A stretch of DNA of 64,000 nt, from contig CAZTUJ010000002.1 of the NCBI GenBank assembly GCA_964616855.1, positions 10,196-74,195 of the forward strand, in the 5' to 3' direction. The translations under genes and the position numbers were made by a program. Within the stretch, counting starts at the first letter, position 1. Every line of letters starts with the position of its first letter. Shown one piece after another: positions 40,284 to 57,226 of this stretch. The notes under the pieces were generated by a model that saw only the letters and a program-made list of their open reading frames with translations, did not search any database and was not told the DNA's origin. The stretch comes from an uncultured Gammaproteobacteria bacterium. GTDB taxonomy: Bacteria; Patescibacteriota; Patescibacteriia; Patescibacteriales; UBA12465.

Positions 40284-40376
40284 AATAGTATTAAGTTAAA
40301 AATTATTTTTAAAAAGATTATTTTAATTTTTTTAAAAAATATAAATGGGAAATTTCCCAGAAAGGAGGTGAGTAAT

Positions 40377-40559
40377 ATGGCTACTGCAAAAAAAGCTGTT
40401 AAAAAAATCGTTAAGAAGGTTGCCAAGAAGACCGTCAAAAAAGCGGTGAAGAAGGTTGTGAAGAAAGCTGCTAAGAAGGCGACCCCTAAGAAGACCGTCA
40501 AAAAAGCTGTGAAGAAGGTTGTGAAGAAAGCTGTGAAGAAGGTCTCCAAAAAGAAATAA
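40377..40559 (+). CDS. Lysine-rich histone H1/Hc-like basic protein (KKAVKK repeats)
   Basis: 60-aa ORF made almost entirely of K/A/V repeats. A strong SD GGAGG (40364-40368) lies 8 nt before the ATG. A 46-nt internal direct repeat is present. Confidence 0.65.
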   Translation: MATAKKAVKKIVKKVAKKTVKKAVKKVVKKAAKKATPKKTVKKAVKKVVKKAVKKVSKKK

Positions 40560-40682: not shown

Positions 40683-41516
40683 ATGAAATTATTTTTTATT
40701 TTATTAATTAGTTTTTCTCTTATTATAATCTGGACTTCCCTTGAGCGTTTTTCTGCACGAGCGGAAGTAGTTTTTTTTGATGTCGGCCAAGGTGATTCTT
40801 TTATTCTAAAAACCCCGACAGGTAAATTAATTTTAGTTGACGGTGGCCCTGACTGGTCGACTCTTTTTGGTCTTGGTCAATATTTGCCTTGGCAGAAGCG
40901 GACAATTGATTTGCTTATTCTCAGCCATAGCCACGAGGATCATCTTTCCTCTTTGCCAGAAATTGCCAGGCGCTATCAAATTAAGCATGTTTTTCTGCCC
41001 GCTTCTTTACATGGCGCCGCCGCTGAGGAATTATTATTAGTCCTCGAAAATCAGGGGAGCACGATTATCTATCCTCAAGAGCCGGCTTGTCTGGATTTGG
41101 AAGCTGATTGTCGTTTATGTATTTTTCCGCCTTCTTCAGAATTTTTGTCGAGCAGTGACGAAAATGATTTTTCTTTGGCCGTTAATTTTATTTGTGATGG
41201 ATTGTCACTAGCGGCTACGGGCGATGCTGGCGTAAAAAGAGAGCAGAGTTTATTGGCTTCAGGTTTTATCCAGGCGGTGCAAATTTTAAAAGCTGCTCAT
41301 CATGGTTCGATTTCGGCTAATAGTCTAGAATTTTTACGGGCATTGGCCCCGGAGGTGATGGTGTTTTCGGTTGGAGAAAACAATCCCTATGACCATCCCA
41401 GCCCTGAAGTTATTAACAGGGCTGGGGCGGAAGGTATCGAAATTAGGTGTACAGATCAAGATGGTGAATTATTATTTTATTCTAATAATAGCGAATTATA
41501 TTTAAAAGATAACTAG
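40683..41516 (+). CDS. Stand-alone ComEC-type metallo-beta-lactamase domain protein with N-terminal TM
   Basis: VVFFDVGQGDSFIL, LILSHSHEDH and AAHHGS motifs. The ComEC competence channel domain is absent. Confidence 0.75.
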   Translation: MKLFFILLISFSLIIIWTSLERFSARAEVVFFDVGQGDSFILKTPTGKLILVDGGPDWSTLFGLGQYLPWQKRTIDLLILSHSHEDHLSSLPEIARRYQIKHVFLPASLHGAAAEELLLVLENQGSTIIYPQEPACLDLEADCRLCIFPPSSEFLSSSDENDFSLAVNFICDGLSLAATGDAGVKREQSLLASGFIQAVQILKAAHHGSISANSLEFLRALAPEVMVFSVGENNPYDHPSPEVINRAGAEGIEIRCTDQDGELLFYSNNSELYLKDN

Positions 41517-41551
41517 ATTGCTGGATTATTTTTTCCTTGTGGACAAAACGC

Positions 41552-41580
41552 TTGACAAAGTGTTTTTTACGTGATATAGT
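41552..41580 (+). promoter_or_regulatory. Near-consensus sigma70 promoter of an ncRNA
   Basis: TTGACA (41552-41557), 17-nt spacer, then TGaTATAGT (41572-41580). Confidence 0.6.
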
Positions 41581-41586
41581 AATTGG

Positions 41587-41755
41587 TTGCTTAAAAAGAT
41601 AAAGGCCGTTTGAAACGGGTCAGGCACGACAAGCATGGGGACTTTCTTACTAGGGTTTTTTGGGCCTACCATTACCGCTTTAAGGCGTTAGTGGTGGGCT
41701 CGGCAATTCCTAGAAGAAATTTTCTTGCCTACCCGTTTGAGACGGTCTTTTTTAT
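41587..41755 (+). ncRNA. Rod-shaped structured ncRNA (6S-RNA-like architecture; identity unproven)
   Basis: It has its own promoter. The closing helix 41603-41625/41727-41748 is about 22 bp, the middle helix 41642-41654/41709-41720 and the apical helix 41664-41678/41685-41699. An asymmetric internal loop reads ACGACAAGCAU. It ends in T6. No ORF is present. Confidence 0.55.
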
Positions 41756-41787
41756 TACCAGAACCATTTTCTTATTTTTATTTTAAA

Positions 41788-41819
41788 ATAAAAGACCTCG
41801 CGATTGCGAGGTCTTTTTT
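41788..41819 (-). terminator. Rho-independent terminator of the VanW gene (bidirectional shape)
   Basis: agacctcgc/gcgaggtct 9-bp stem with A/T flanks. Confidence 0.75.
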
Positions 41820-41833
41820 GTAATCAAGGTAAT

Positions 41834-43663
41834 TTATTCAGTGGTGCTGGTCGCGGTGCTGGGAATGGTAGTGCTAGCGGTACTAGTGGCAGCACTTGAG
41901 CTAGCGGTTTTTCCGACTAAGCAGACTTCTTGCCAGGGAACATAGTGGGAACTAAAGCGTCGAGTTTGTTCTAGAGGTGAGGAAGTCGCCCCCTCGGGAT
42001 AGATGACGGTATAGTCGAAATAGGCGTCGGCCCCATTATGCGCTCTTTCGGTGCACTTTTTTTCGCCTGGCTTTAAGTCTTCGGTTTCAATTATCTTTGT
42101 GTCCGCCGGTTTGACGATGTTATAGACCACAGGGGTAGTGGTGGTGACGAGGCGTCCATCTTTTGTTCCCCAGAAGTCAAAATAGACATCATCTTTTTCT
42201 ATCCTGCTCTGGATGAGAATGCTTTTGTTAGTATCATTAACGAAGCGGACATCGGGGGAGGGATCATAAATTGCCGCATCTGTCCCCGCCGGCTCGTAAT
42301 AGGAAACGCGGTAAGAGTGGTTACGTCGGGCGGTAATGGGTAAACCTGAACCAACGGCAGCTCGGAAGACAGTTGTACCAATTTGGCAAAGACCGCCGCC
42401 ATATTCAGGGATGGTTTTATTGCCCTTAATTACTAATTCGGGCAAATAGCCGGCAGCGGCATCAATTTCCCCTAAAGCGGTAACTAAAGAAAATTCTTCT
42501 CCTGGCCGAATTACTAAACCGTGGACAGCGGCTGCTCCGACAGCGATATTGTGGCGACGATTTTTAGGCGAGCCGGCAAAGTTGGAGTGGCCAGTGCCAA
42601 CGATTTCTTTAATATCAAAGTCTTCAGCCGCAGCGGGAGGAGTTATTTTGCTGATTAGTTCAACATTCTTCTCTTTTACCTCGGTATTTTTATAGGTTTC
42701 AATAATAACCTGAGCGCTACTGGTAGCATCTAGTTCGTAGCCGTCAGTCCCTAGTTGCCAGCTGGACACTTTATTATCTTTAATTTCGAAGCGCGGGTCT
42801 TGGGGGGCAACATTAATTATTGGCGCTATTTTTTCGTTGAGGTATTTAGCTACTCGCTCAGAGTTAAAATCAAGTTTTAATTTTTCTCCCTCTTTTTTCA
42901 CTGACAGCCAAGAAGATATTTCTTCACGGCTAACGGGCCAGCTTTTATCTTTGAAATTTAATTTTAAAGGAGTGGCACTGAGGGCGCTGGCTTCCTGCTC
43001 TAAACCTTTTAAATCACGGCTATAGATAGTCGGGTATTCAGTCTTGGTTTTTATTGTAATGGGGCTATTATCTAAAGCCGCCAATTTTTGTTCGATGTTT
43101 TGAAATAATTCTTCCCAATCTACGGTTTTTCCCGGTCGCTCGGTACTGATTTCAATCTTTTTATCAGTGAAAGTAAAAGCGGCATCGACGGCGGGGTTAA
43201 GGCTGGCGGGAAAAGCCTCAGTGAGTCTATCTTTAATATTATTTTTTTCTAAAGAGAAGCTGGCAGGGATTATAATGCTAGGGCTTCCTTGCAGTCGCCA
43301 CCACCAGCGTCTGATCGGTCCTGGTCGTCTTTGGTTTTGGAGAGCGCTGGCGATTTGATCGGGATTATAGTGGAAGTTAGGACTGGCCATATCAGCATCA
43401 AAAGAGACTTCAGTGGCACTGAGATTAAAGTTATCACCACCATAATTAAAGCTAAGGCCTTCAGTCTCTATTTTTTGATAGCGCGCTTGTATCTGCGCCA
43501 TTGCCTCTTCCGTGCTTAGCCCACTAATATTAACCGTCCCTACATAAAGGCCGTCGCGTAGGTTTTGATTAGGGCTTTGTCGGTATTCAAAGAAGACGAC
43601 TAAAAACAAAAAAACCACCAATACGGCGATCGTGGCGATTATGATTATTTTCGGTTTTTTCAT
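41834..43663 (-). CDS. VanW family protein, membrane-anchored
   Basis: VanW core GGGLCQIGTTVFRAAVGSGLPITARRNHSY. TM after ATG 43663 (MKKPKIIIIATIAVLVVFLFLVVF). Ser/Thr/Ala-rich tail. Confidence 0.8.
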   Translation of the reverse strand: MKKPKIIIIATIAVLVVFLFLVVFFEYRQSPNQNLRDGLYVGTVNISGLSTEEAMAQIQARYQKIETEGLSFNYGGDNFNLSATEVSFDADMASPNFHYNPDQIASALQNQRRPGPIRRWWWRLQGSPSIIIPASFSLEKNNIKDRLTEAFPASLNPAVDAAFTFTDKKIEISTERPGKTVDWEELFQNIEQKLAALDNSPITIKTKTEYPTIYSRDLKGLEQEASALSATPLKLNFKDKSWPVSREEISSWLSVKKEGEKLKLDFNSERVAKYLNEKIAPIINVAPQDPRFEIKDNKVSSWQLGTDGYELDATSSAQVIIETYKNTEVKEKNVELISKITPPAAAEDFDIKEIVGTGHSNFAGSPKNRRHNIAVGAAAVHGLVIRPGEEFSLVTALGEIDAAAGYLPELVIKGNKTIPEYGGGLCQIGTTVFRAAVGSGLPITARRNHSYRVSYYEPAGTDAAIYDPSPDVRFVNDTNKSILIQSRIEKDDVYFDFWGTKDGRLVTTTTPVVYNIVKPADTKIIETEDLKPGEKKCTERAHNGADAYFDYTVIYPEGATSSPLEQTRRFSSHYVPWQEVCLVGKTASSSAATSTASTTIPSTATSTTE

Positions 43664-43673
43664 AGCGGTATGC

Positions 43674-43862
43674 TTAATTATCCATACGTAAGAGCTCATT
43701 GAGCAGGCCGGCTTTGTCGGTGCCGATGGAAAAGTTTAATTTTTGTCCGATTTCAGGAATTTGGGGAAGCTTTTCTTTTGGCCAATAGATAATATTTTTT
43801 TCTTGATCTTGGAGAATTACTTGATCATCGCTAAAACCAGCGACTGTTAATTCATAATTCAT
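43674..43862 (-). CDS. Small hypothetical protein (possibly DUF3006-like)
   Basis: 62-aa ORF from ATG 43862, 1 nt after the hsp20 stop and 10 nt before the VanW start. Confidence 0.4.
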   Translation of the reverse strand: MNYELTVAGFSDDQVILQDQEKNIIYWPKEKLPQIPEIGQKLNFSIGTDKAGLLNELLRMDN

Positions 43863-55565: not shown

Positions 55566-56447
55566 TTACAGCTTTATCGGAAAATTTTTAATATTGTTGA
55601 TTGGTTGAGCTCCTTCTTGGATGAGAACACGACAGCCGGCCGTTTGAGGAGTTAAGCTTTTACCGGGCGCAGCATATAATTCTTTGCCTAATTTTTGCGC
55701 CCAGCGAGCGGTACGCATTGAGCCGGAATCAAGTTTTGCTTCTAATACCAAGACTTTTTCGGCTATGGCCGCTATTAGGCGGTTACGTTGAATAAAGTTA
55801 GCGGCCAGAGGGCGAGCTGAAGGTGGATATTCAGATAAGATTAAACCCCCTTGTTGGATGATGGCAGTAACTAAATTTCTGTTAGCGTTTGGGTAGATAT
55901 AATCTAGGCCTGACCCTAATATTGCCAGGTTATAAGCATTATGTTCAAGACTAAGGCGATGGGCGAGAGCGTCTATTCCTAGGGCTAAACCGCTAGCCAA
56001 CCCGTAGCCTTGTTGGACAAGGAGCGGTATTAATTTTTTAGTGAGAGTTAGGCCGTAGGAACTTGGTTGGCGTGACCCAGTGACACTGATAATTTTTATA
56101 TCCTTTTGCCACTTACCCCGAGCATAGAGCAGTAGCGGGGCGTCGGCAAGTTGATGAAAGGTCTTGGGATAGTTAGGGTTTTGCTGACTGATTAGAAAGG
56201 TGCGGCTGACGTCGAGATATTTTTGGAGTTTAGGCGGAGAAAATAGTTTTTTCTTTTCTTGCCAGATTGCTTGTATTTTTAAAGATATCCCGGCCTCTTG
56301 CCATAGTTCTGTCTTTGCCCGCCAGACCTCTTCCCAGGAGCCGCTGAGGCCCCTGAGAGTGTTTAGTCTTTTCGGTCCCAGACCGGGTAAAGCGCTTAAA
56401 GCTGCTAAGAATAGTTCTTCAGTTTGGCGATAATAAGGCCTTGACAT
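55566..56447 (-). CDS. dprA: DNA processing protein DprA (Smf)
   Basis: Rossmann-like core VTGSRQPSSYG...GLALGIDALAH. The conserved dprA-topA order is present. Confidence 0.85.
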   Translation of the reverse strand: MSRPYYRQTEELFLAALSALPGLGPKRLNTLRGLSGSWEEVWRAKTELWQEAGISLKIQAIWQEKKKLFSPPKLQKYLDVSRTFLISQQNPNYPKTFHQLADAPLLLYARGKWQKDIKIISVTGSRQPSSYGLTLTKKLIPLLVQQGYGLASGLALGIDALAHRLSLEHNAYNLAILGSGLDYIYPNANRNLVTAIIQQGGLILSEYPPSARPLAANFIQRNRLIAAIAEKVLVLEAKLDSGSMRTARWAQKLGKELYAAPGKSLTPQTAGCRVLIQEGAQPINNIKNFPIKL

Positions 56448-56478: not shown

Positions 56479-56582
56479 AAAACCCCCTTGATTGCTTGTA
56501 CAAGTGCTTTAGCGCGCGTTCACTTTCCTCCTAGTGAGTGCGTGCTTACCAAGCTTTTTGTATAAGCAATCAAGGGGGTTTT
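56479..56582. repeat. Long near-perfect inverted repeat forming a ~105-nt hairpin
   Basis: Outer arms 56479-56504/56557-56582 form about 26 bp with one G.U. The inner stem is 56512-56524/56533-56545. The apical loop 56525-56532 is TTCCTCCT (minus strand AGGAGGAA). T-runs are present on both strands. Confidence 0.7.
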
Positions 56583-56594
56583 ATTGTAGAAAAA

Positions 56595-57161
56595 CTATTT
56601 ATTTTGATGAGTTTCTGTCACCAAGGCTTGCAAGCCGGCGCTCATCGCTTCTTCTAATATTTCTAGTTCGTCTTTTTCAAATCTTTGTAAAACAAATTTA
56701 TCAGCTGGGATAGGGTTATGGAGAGCTTCGGTTTTGATGCCGAGACGCAGACGGGTAAATTGTTGAGTCTTCAGACGATTAATAATCGATTGAATGCCTT
56801 TATTACCACCACTGCGGGAATCATGGCTGATTTTCCACGAACCTAATTTTAAATCTAAATCATCTTGAATAACAAAAAGAATTTCATTTAAATTTTGATC
56901 CTTTTTTAAGAGACAGCCGAATTGCCGGGCCAGTAGTTGATAGTAGCGGAGAGCACTATAGACGCTATCACCAGAATTATTCATAAAACTCAATGGCTTC
57001 AGATATAAAAAACCGCCGCTCTCTTTAATTAAGGCGTTGAATTTTTTTTCTTGGCGCCAGCCTTCAGCTCCAGCTAGGCGGTCTAAGGCGAGCCAGCCGG
57101 TGTTATGTCGCGTTAAGGCGTATTTGTCGCCGGGATTACCCAGGCCGATAATTATTTGCAT
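56595..57161 (-). CDS. pth: Peptidyl-tRNA hydrolase
   Basis: MQIIIGLGNPG...YALTRHNTG start. ATG at 57161. Confidence 0.9.
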   Translation of the reverse strand: MQIIIGLGNPGDKYALTRHNTGWLALDRLAGAEGWRQEKKFNALIKESGGFLYLKPLSFMNNSGDSVYSALRYYQLLARQFGCLLKKDQNLNEILFVIQDDLDLKLGSWKISHDSRSGGNKGIQSIINRLKTQQFTRLRLGIKTEALHNPIPADKFVLQRFEKDELEILEEAMSAGLQALVTETHQNK

Positions 57162-57226
57162 AAAGTCTTGGTGTAAGCAATTTATATTATAGCGCATTCA
57201 GGCTTAAAAGACGATAAAATAAAAAT

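Follow-up and report, generated by a model that had tools for sequence, protein, structure and literature searches.

The window analysed here, a 64,000-nucleotide stretch of contig CAZTUJ010000002.1, harbours at positions 41517-41833 a gap of 317 bp without an open reading frame (ORF), within which a stand-alone gene for a rod-shaped small RNA is predicted. The gap is flanked by an ORF of the MBL/ComEC type on one side (40683-41516, + strand) and by an ORF for a VanW/PG_binding_4 protein on the other (41834-43699, - strand). The window exhibits ~40% G+C and many aminoacyl-tRNA synthetase genes, and the homologues of the flanking proteins bear names such as Patescibacteria, Falkowbacteria, Parcubacteria and similar; the genome is assigned to the Patescibacteria (CPR). 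A preliminary description, prepared from the letters of the DNA, had proposed for this gap, lying between a ComEC-domain gene and the VanW gene, a self-contained non-coding RNA (ncRNA) with a near-consensus promoter and an intrinsic terminator, fitting 6S RNA best; all the elements it described are present, either exactly or within a few bases of where it had placed them.

Promoter, fold and terminators of the predicted RNA

The promoter, TTGACA-17-TGaTATAGT at 41552-41580, agrees with the consensus in 11 of 12 positions, the TG of the extended -10 element being included, and would give rise to an RNA of ~168 nt (41586-41753, + strand). The + strand of the segment 41580-41760 forms a single hairpin without branches, at -83.0 kcal/mol (z = -8.82), with none of 200 shuffled sequences being as good, the corresponding values for the opposite strand being -54.8 kcal/mol and z = -4.46. 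The rod comprises 64 pairs, 13 of them G.U, and it is because of these 13 pairs, equivalent to C.A mismatches on the other strand, that the + strand is more stable than the - strand by 28 kcal/mol. The individual features are as follows, the counts out of 106 referring to those members of the RNA family, described in the next section, that have enough upstream sequence:

41552-41557, + strand: -35 hexamer TTGACA, found as a perfect TTGACA at the equivalent place in 98/106 family members
41572-41580, + strand: extended -10 element TGaTATAGT, its extended -10 TG being present in 99/106 members
41586-41600, + strand: predicted single-stranded, A-rich 5' leader, the start being placed at ~41586-41588, i.e. 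6-8 nt past the -10 element, from promoter geometry
41601-41611/41740-41750 and 41613-41620/41731-41738, + strand: closing helix P1
41622-41626/41726-41730, + strand: helix P1b, AGGCA/UGCCU, with AGGC/GCCU replaced by AGAC/GUCU in second copies
41627-41636, + strand: 5' bulge of 10 nt, CGACAAGCAU, with nothing opposite and A41626 immediately 5' of it; the signature of the family
41637-41641/41721-41725, + strand: helix P2a, GGGGA/UUUCU, 5 bp, G.U-rich, from the fold
41643-41648/41714-41719 and 41650-41655/41708-41713, + strand: helix P2b, 5' strand UUUCUU / CUAGGG, from the fold
41656-41659, + strand: 5' side of a small U-rich internal loop, the region being largely pairable in the common 144-nt form
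41660-41674/41689-41703 plus 41676-41679/41684-41687, + strand: apical helix P3 of 15 + 4 bp with the loop UUAA, a lineage-specific extension
41704-41725, + strand: 3' side of the internal loop and 3' strand of P2, containing the conserved AAAUUUUCU
41726-41750, + strand: 3' strand of P1b and P1; in contig L003, 41608 G>A is accompanied by the compensatory 41743 C>U
41748-41753, + strand: U-tract of six T directly after the closing helix, the intrinsic-terminator tail and predicted 3' end
~41788-41819, - strand: separate VanW terminator hairpin of 12 bp, -19.4 kcal/mol, lying outside the RNA and bounding the unit

Beside the bulge, P2a and P2b provide 12 bp with three G.U and eight A-U pairs. 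The helices had originally been described accurately to within a few bases, with the omission of the G.U-rich P2a; the closing helix running into TTTTTT and the separate terminator of the VanW gene were both placed correctly. This terminator gives terminator-type sub-threshold matches to Rfam and shows compensatory changes in contigs L001 and L003. Between it and the U-tract of the RNA there are ~26 nt (ATTACCAGAACCATTTTCTTA..., ~41754-41779) that occur in the window only, being absent from the otherwise near-identical L001 and L003. Judged from promoter, fold and terminator signals, the element is a predicted structured small-RNA gene with its own strong promoter of the sigma-70 type, in which the closing helix and the U-tract would serve as the terminator.

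Members, conservation and genomic context of the family

The RNA of the window belongs to a widespread and strongly conserved family of Patescibacteria that coincides with no catalogued Rfam family. In the two contigs L001 and L003, with an MBL protein 84-85% identical, the gene order is the same and the RNA is 97-98% identical, as against just 70-75% identity at the third codon positions of the MBL gene, which argues for purifying selection on the RNA. The differences within the RNA consist of one compensatory replacement of a G-C by an A-U pair (41608/41743), two changes from A-U to G.U and one change in a loop. Moreover, the RNA lies directly downstream of the MBL homologue in six (L005, L006, L007, L010, L018 and L024) of the 80 GTDB species representatives examined, two of the six being Falkowbacteria; despite an identity of just 33-55% between the MBL proteins, these loci share the 27-mer ACGGGUCAGGCACGACAAGCAUGGGGA without any change. 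The -35 hexamer TTGACA is invariant as well in L001, L003, L005-L007, L010, L018 and L024.

A metagenome scan with the 19-mer AGGCACGACAAGCAUGGGG yielded at least 120 contigs, almost all of which are recognised, on the strand of the motif, by R1, a covariance model built from an alignment including the window copy. From the members that R1 recovered, the broader model R2 was made; for the window copy R1 gives 195 bits and R2 140 bits, partly by construction of the models, and the R1 score of ~195 bits for the sense strand compares with ~55 bits for the antisense strand. It should be mentioned that the exact 19-mer was also met in a high-G+C, seemingly non-Patescibacteria contig with a transposase (L192:4355); neither covariance model recognises this match, which is probably due to chance or fragmentary.

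Concerning the conservation of the core, unbiased support is provided by the 13 members reached via neighbouring proteins, i.e. L001, L003, L005-L007, L010, L018, L024, L206 and the Uhrbacteria-type L209-L212. All of them keep CGACAAGCAUGGG with the bulge identical, the sole differences in the core being the loss of the A before the bulge in L212 and GGG for GGGG in L209 and L210. The consensus of 64 non-redundant members reads, from the 5' end, closing helix, cGGg..AGGC, ACGACAAGCAU, GGGGA-uuuu, variable region, aaa.UUuCUUGCCU.cCCg and the remainder of the closing helix. The universal core is composed of the AGGC/GCCU clamp, the 10-nt bulge CGACAAGCAU and the GGG(G)/UUCU helix, rich in G.U. 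Within P2a, the G.U pairs remain G.U in 61/64, 61/64 and 64/64 members, the strengthening U>C being found in just 3/64, 3/64 and 0/64; because these pairs are kept although U>C would strengthen the helix, either the wobble geometry or the weakness of P2a is selected.

The base pairing of the rod is backed by covariation. RNAalifold applied to nine syntenic sequences aligned with MAFFT gave 58 pairs, 13 of them with compensatory changes. Across the 64 members, 93.4% of the cells are standard-paired versus 82.3 +/- 0.4% in shuffles, 44 of the 58 pairs have changed on both sides and none of 500 shuffles reaches any of the five measures used; per helix, covarying pairs number 18/24 in helix 1, 12/17 in helix 2 and 14/17 in helix 3. 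The alignment of the 64 members was fitted to the model and thus favours the structure somewhat; the signal is nevertheless taken as real because of the MAFFT-based result for the nine sequences and of a control in which the 3' partners were slid by 1-3 columns, the pairing then falling to 40-63%.

Outside the core the family varies widely. The distance from the 5' core to the 3' UCU(U)GCCU ranges over 25-276 nt with a mode of 53-57 nt, the length of the RNA from ~89 to ~306 nt, most often ~144 nt, and the apex from ~10 bp to more than 100 nt. In the sub-clade of the window, the short apical GGC/GCU hairpin known from the common form carries an additional 15-bp helix in its loop, and the sequence of the leader is not kept in distant members. 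This pattern suggests that the function sits in the core, with the apex free to vary. The promoter, defined as TTGACA (at most one mismatch)-N16-18-TAnnnT, is found in 101/106 members, and a T-run follows P1 in 90/106. With its promoter and terminator kept family-wide and its strong covariation, the RNA gene is self-contained and predicted to be independently transcribed, as had been supposed at the outset.

Some members deviate in copy number or surroundings. The shortest one (L089:2431-2519, - strand), of ~89 nt, has a tRNA on either side, within an array that counts more than 25 tRNAs (~3.3 kb), and lacks a promoter, so its RNA would need to be released by tRNA-processing enzymes. Members beside rRNA operons, some of them directly after the 23S-5S rRNA, keep their own promoter and a separate terminator. 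Tandem copies with a single promoter occur in L105 (1653 and 1787, reverse strand) and L124 (8153 and 8290), the second copy having AGAC/GUCU for AGGC/GCCU, a compensatory change. Two divergent copies, one Uhrbacteria-type and one Falkowbacteria-type, lie 222 nt apart in L181, and in L140 a shortened second copy, 1.3 kb away, looks degenerate. The positions beside rRNA and tRNA genes and the extra copies lend the family a housekeeping character.

Three further features that were considered were rejected. The palindromic strands of P1 as a conserved conformational switch are confined to the sub-clade of the window, being absent in Uhrbacteria-type and rRNA-linked members. A pseudoknot of the leader UGCUU with AAGCA of the bulge is contradicted by L007, L010 and L024, which do not keep the leader. 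A small ORF starting from the AUG in the bulge has no Shine-Dalgarno sequence, and both the compensatory substitutions and the insert lengths that are not multiples of three speak against it.

Searches with the 4227 models of Rfam 15 brought, for the whole window at gathering score, tRNAs only and, for 41480-41860 at E <= 10, only terminator-driven matches located on the VanW terminator. No family overlapping the RNA was found at gathering score in 15 + 4 loci with members or at E <= 1 in nine further small member loci. A known Rfam family, be it 6S, signal recognition particle (SRP) RNA, Y RNA or another, was thus rejected, the window and 28 member loci having given only tRNA and rRNA matches or terminator-driven noise, and the fallback suggestion of a different or undescribed RNA class fits the data, neither the window copy nor 24 other members matching any family of Rfam 15. 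There is no second copy of the element within the window. Nor did the viral contigs and phage genomes searched for it give a match, and a phage or mobile origin was rejected on that ground. Literature searches on 6S or other ncRNAs in the candidate phyla radiation (CPR)/Patescibacteria returned nothing relevant.

As regards the genomic context, 83 placements indicate that the RNA mostly points the same way as the gene upstream and faces a convergent gene downstream. The downstream gene encodes a VanW protein in roughly one locus out of two, whatever the varied genes upstream, and a DAGK_cat-like protein in roughly one out of four, while the upstream gene codes for RNase J (~30 loci), an MBL protein (~24), a PHP-type protein (~20) or, in Uhrbacteria, ClpP. 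Homologues of the VanW protein of the window led to four loci, in three of which there is no RNA and VanW abuts yidC; the RNA must be elsewhere or absent in those three genomes. The three (L205, L207 and L208, on contigs of ~0.4-0.9 Mb) display VanW followed by yidC-yidD-rnpA-rpmH and dnaA-dnaN, i.e. the origin region, so the adjacency of the RNA and VanW is not universal even in close relatives. The RNA is present in all four Uhrbacteria VanW loci fetched later (L209-L212). A functional link to the neighbours was rejected, given that the genes vary, that only RNase J is related to RNA and that three of the four loci with homologues of the window's VanW are without the RNA; the placement is read as inherited gene order rather than as a functional operon. 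The model R2 found no member near the MBL genes of 74 other genomes, and the family is thus known from Patescibacteria of the Falkowbacteria/Uhrbacteria type and not from the CPR as a whole.

Two other features of the window may be added. A second long hairpin, with 25-nt arms 96% complementary, lies at 56479-56582 (- strand) in the gap between the minus-strand ORFs 55566-56447 and 56595-57197; its 153-nt fold has -53.1 kcal/mol (z = -7.2), it has no Rfam match at gathering score and could represent a leader or a further structured RNA. A 63-aa ORF rich in Lys, Ala and Val (40368-40559, + strand), histone H1-like and without a Pfam match, contains 12-nt periodic repeats and seven overlapping copies of a 63-nt unit; an ORF of 60-61 aa occurs at the same place in L001 and L003.

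Possible function and rival explanations

The explanation preferred here, which we hold tentatively and put somewhat short of an even chance, joins a new stand-alone RNA family with a docking or decoy mode of action via the bulge. The rod would serve as a stiff handle that resists nucleases, a conserved cellular partner would dock in a sequence-specific manner at the bulge and the wobble helix beside it, and the RNA would act in trans, as the scaffold of a ribonucleoprotein (RNP) or as a decoy, without extensive base pairing. Among known systems, such a mode would be closest to that of 6S RNA, the promoter-mimicking decoy of RNA polymerase with a 5' central bulge, and the polymerase holoenzyme is the leading, if still doubtful, single candidate for the partner. 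That the family represents a new class unrelated to 6S, SRP and Y RNAs, i.e. a housekeeping RNP or a principle of regulation that is new and peculiar to Patescibacteria, seems to us evenly balanced.

A 6S RNA is a rod, ~160-200 nt long, that has a closing stem, a large 5' central bulge holding the start of the product RNA (pRNA), a 3' strand of the central bubble with a -10-like element, or a hairpin, and an apical stem with a -35-like region (PMC8414754, PMC8876501); the pRNA hallmarks, a purine start and GG at positions 4-6, have been described for some lineages only (PMC8414754). The RNA studied here could be a true, highly divergent 6S RNA of these Patescibacteria, binding the sigma-A holoenzyme as a mimic of the open promoter. 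The weak G.U/A-U helix beside the bulge would then melt to yield the full bubble, a short pRNA would be templated by the bulge together with the 5' strand of P1b/P1, and this pRNA would refold the RNA and set the enzyme free. We regard this as rather unlikely, despite the fit of the size, of the rod with closing and apical arms and of the large 5' central bulge (PMC8414754, PMC8876501). The strong housekeeping promoter kept family-wide is in its favour too, as is the fact that the bulge and its 5' flank, where the template of the pRNA would lie, are the most conserved part, that the 12 bp of P2a/P2b, with three G.U and eight A-U pairs, would melt easily while the wobble pairs are kept, and that some genomes have two paralogues, like 6S-1 and 6S-2. 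The literature searched contains no report on 6S RNA with the candidate phyla radiation, and the 6S slot is perhaps unfilled there.

What speaks against a divergent 6S RNA bears for the most part also on the polymerase as partner in the docking reading. Neither the window copy (E <= 10) nor other members match 6S in Rfam. There are zero nucleotides opposite the bulge, i.e. no unpaired 3' strand at the place of the 6S -10-like element (PMC8876501), and the flanking pairs are supported by changes between G.U and G-C. A conserved 3'-strand hairpin of the 6S type opposite the bulge was rejected as weak and inconsistent, with a median of -1.75 kcal/mol over the 64 members and 28/64 at or below -2. 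The hallmarks of a pRNA are absent: read as a complement, the bulge and its 5' flank give 5'-AUGCUUGUCGUGCCUGACCC, where no start inside the bulge is followed by GG within its first 10 nt; a putative pRNA complementary to 41613-41636 would read 5'-AUGCUUGUCGUGCC... or 5'-GUGCCUGACCC..., and one made from the bulge (5'-AUGCUUGUCGUGCCU or 5'-GUGCCUGACCC) would be without GG at positions 4-6 (PMC8414754). Members of 89-112 nt have apical arms of just ~10 bp; small size alone is not decisive against 6S, since a truncated 6S-1 RNA with short arms still functions and cycles in vitro (PMC8876501). Finally, the core is invariant across orders, which is unusual for 6S, sequence identity among 6S RNAs being 'limited' (PMC8876501). 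The RNA thus falls outside the 6S family in its current definition, and the initial view that 6S fits best is not supported as a statement of membership, considering the missing Rfam match at E <= 10, the lack of a 3' bubble or hairpin and of the pRNA GG, the members down to ~89 nt and the invariant core. The docking reading has to reckon with two more points, namely that a base-pairing seed, too, would take the form of an invariant and accessible 10-12-mer and that the metagenome members were picked by an exact 19-mer, which makes their identical core uninformative.

A base-pairing antisense RNA, with the bulge as accessible seed and with 16S helix 34 or an mRNA start region (complement CCCCAUGCUUGUCGU) as its target, is in our judgement improbable, no recurrent mRNA match having emerged in the ~1.5 Mb of sequence examined and the seeds of antisense RNAs being usually located in hairpin loops. 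Its specific form, with the 5' strand of 16S helix 34 (E. coli 1054-1065) as the pairing partner of the bulge, would make the RNA a chaperone of small-subunit assembly or a regulator of the small subunit, comparable to the rRNA chaperones of the snoRNA type; it is quite improbable, even if the bulge with the next G (ACGACAAGCAUG) is Watson-Crick complementary in 11/12 positions to CAUGGUUGUCGU in the 16S rRNA of the carrier contigs L108 and L173. Such a value is reached by only 9 of 2000 shuffled 12-mers against 16S + 23S + 5S rRNA, the complementary letters are almost exactly those of the unpaired bulge, the invariance of the seed would follow from an invariant universal rRNA target, and some copies adjoin rRNA operons. 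The complementarity was, however, noticed post hoc, its p of ~0.005 not being corrected for the search over possible targets; the central G.G mismatch is invariant though a single substitution would abolish it, the 16S rRNAs of L108 and L173 have an intact helix 34, and we know of no such trans-acting, rRNA-directed RNA in bacteria. Read the other way, the bulge resembles the 3' strand of helix 34 (GACGUCAAAUCAGCAUGG), the 16S site in L108 and L173 lying around CATGGTTGTCGTCAGCTCGTG.

That there is no functional RNA at all, the element being a DNA palindrome, a bidirectional terminator or insulator, a mobile inverted repeat or a small protein gene, would agree with the placement between convergent genes, with the closing helix flanked by an A-run and a T-run, which could terminate in both directions, and with the two mechanical ORFs that overlap it (41526-41672, - strand; 41610-41786, + strand). 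We consider it scarcely credible, since covariation and the conservation of the promoter effectively refute it. A terminator alone has no promoter, whereas 101/106 members possess their own near-consensus one; VanW has a separate terminator; an invariant 10-nt bulge would have no role in a terminator, the need of which is far exceeded by a 64-bp rod; and the 13 G.U pairs render the + strand more stable by 28 kcal/mol. A mobile repeat is at odds with one copy in 64 kb, syntenic beside a VanW or DAGK-like gene, and with the absence from the viral and phage collections. Besides the compensatory substitutions, insert lengths differing by non-multiples of three (52-57 nt and others) rule out a conserved ORF.

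An aberrant SRP (4.5S) RNA or a Y-RNA-like RNA is the explanation to which we give the least weight, a negligible one. A rod hairpin of 85-170 nt would be like 4.5S RNA, and the core AGG...AGCA has the letters of the symmetric loop of SRP RNA, as in the 4.5S RNA of E. coli. The window copy, however, matches neither the SRP (RF00169, RF01854) nor the Y RNA models at E <= 10, and domain IV of SRP RNA is apical with a GNRA loop, while the apex is here the most variable part, taking insertions of 50-200 nt. An SRP-like local fold of AGG...AGCA was rejected as well, AGGC pairing with GCCU and covarying with it to AGAC/GUCU, and the flanks not being complementary.

Comparison with known RNAs

Patescibacteria (CPR) account for a large share of bacterial diversity, have tiny genomes, are mostly uncultured and their ncRNAs are almost uncharted. 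An invariant core and a near-perfect promoter in such reduced genomes suggest an RNA that is likely abundant and important. If it were a true equivalent of 6S RNA, the principle of promoter mimicry would extend to a shape without a non-template-like strand and a gap in the distribution of 6S would be filled; if not, a major lineage would have a housekeeping RNP of a new kind or, possibly, an RNA directed at the ribosome. In either case, the covariance model together with the 13-mer CGACAAGCAUGGG offers a simple marker for genome annotation and the mining of metatranscriptomes.

The likeness to 6S RNA (ssrS; RF00013, 6S-Flavo RF01685) concerns the stand-alone, strongly promoted gene for an RNA of ~170 nt (~168 nt in the window copy), the unbranched rod with closing and apical stems broken by small loops, the large mid-rod bulge on the 5' strand, here of 10-11 nt and invariant, the peak of conservation at and 5' of this bulge and the paralogues in some genomes. 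The new family differs in matching neither the RF00013 nor the RF01685 covariance model, in having zero nucleotides opposite the bulge, with the adjoining pairs backed by variation between G.U and G-C, in a core sequence invariant across orders, and in natural members down to ~89 nt, with a mode of ~144 nt within the range of ~89-306 nt.

With SRP RNA/4.5S RNA (RF00169, RF01854) the family shares a simple rod of ~100-170 nt formed from paired ends and a housekeeping type, one member being situated among tRNAs; its conserved element, however, is a one-sided bulge near the base and its tip is hypervariable, whereas SRP RNA has domain IV and the GNRA loop at the tip. Ms1, compared by description only, is an actinobacterial RNA of ~300 nt that binds the core enzyme. 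Together with other RNA-polymerase-associated RNAs that are lineage-specific and abundant, replace or complement 6S and are unrelated to it in sequence, it provides a precedent for a lineage-specific structured RNA beside 6S (PMC11077062). The orphan, phylum-restricted small-RNA motifs (PMC2864571, PMC5737381) resemble the new family in having been found by conservation and covariation, in being limited to one lineage and in possessing a promoter and a terminator; those motifs are in Rfam, where none matches, and the new family is set apart from them by its unusually invariant core and very strong promoter conservation.

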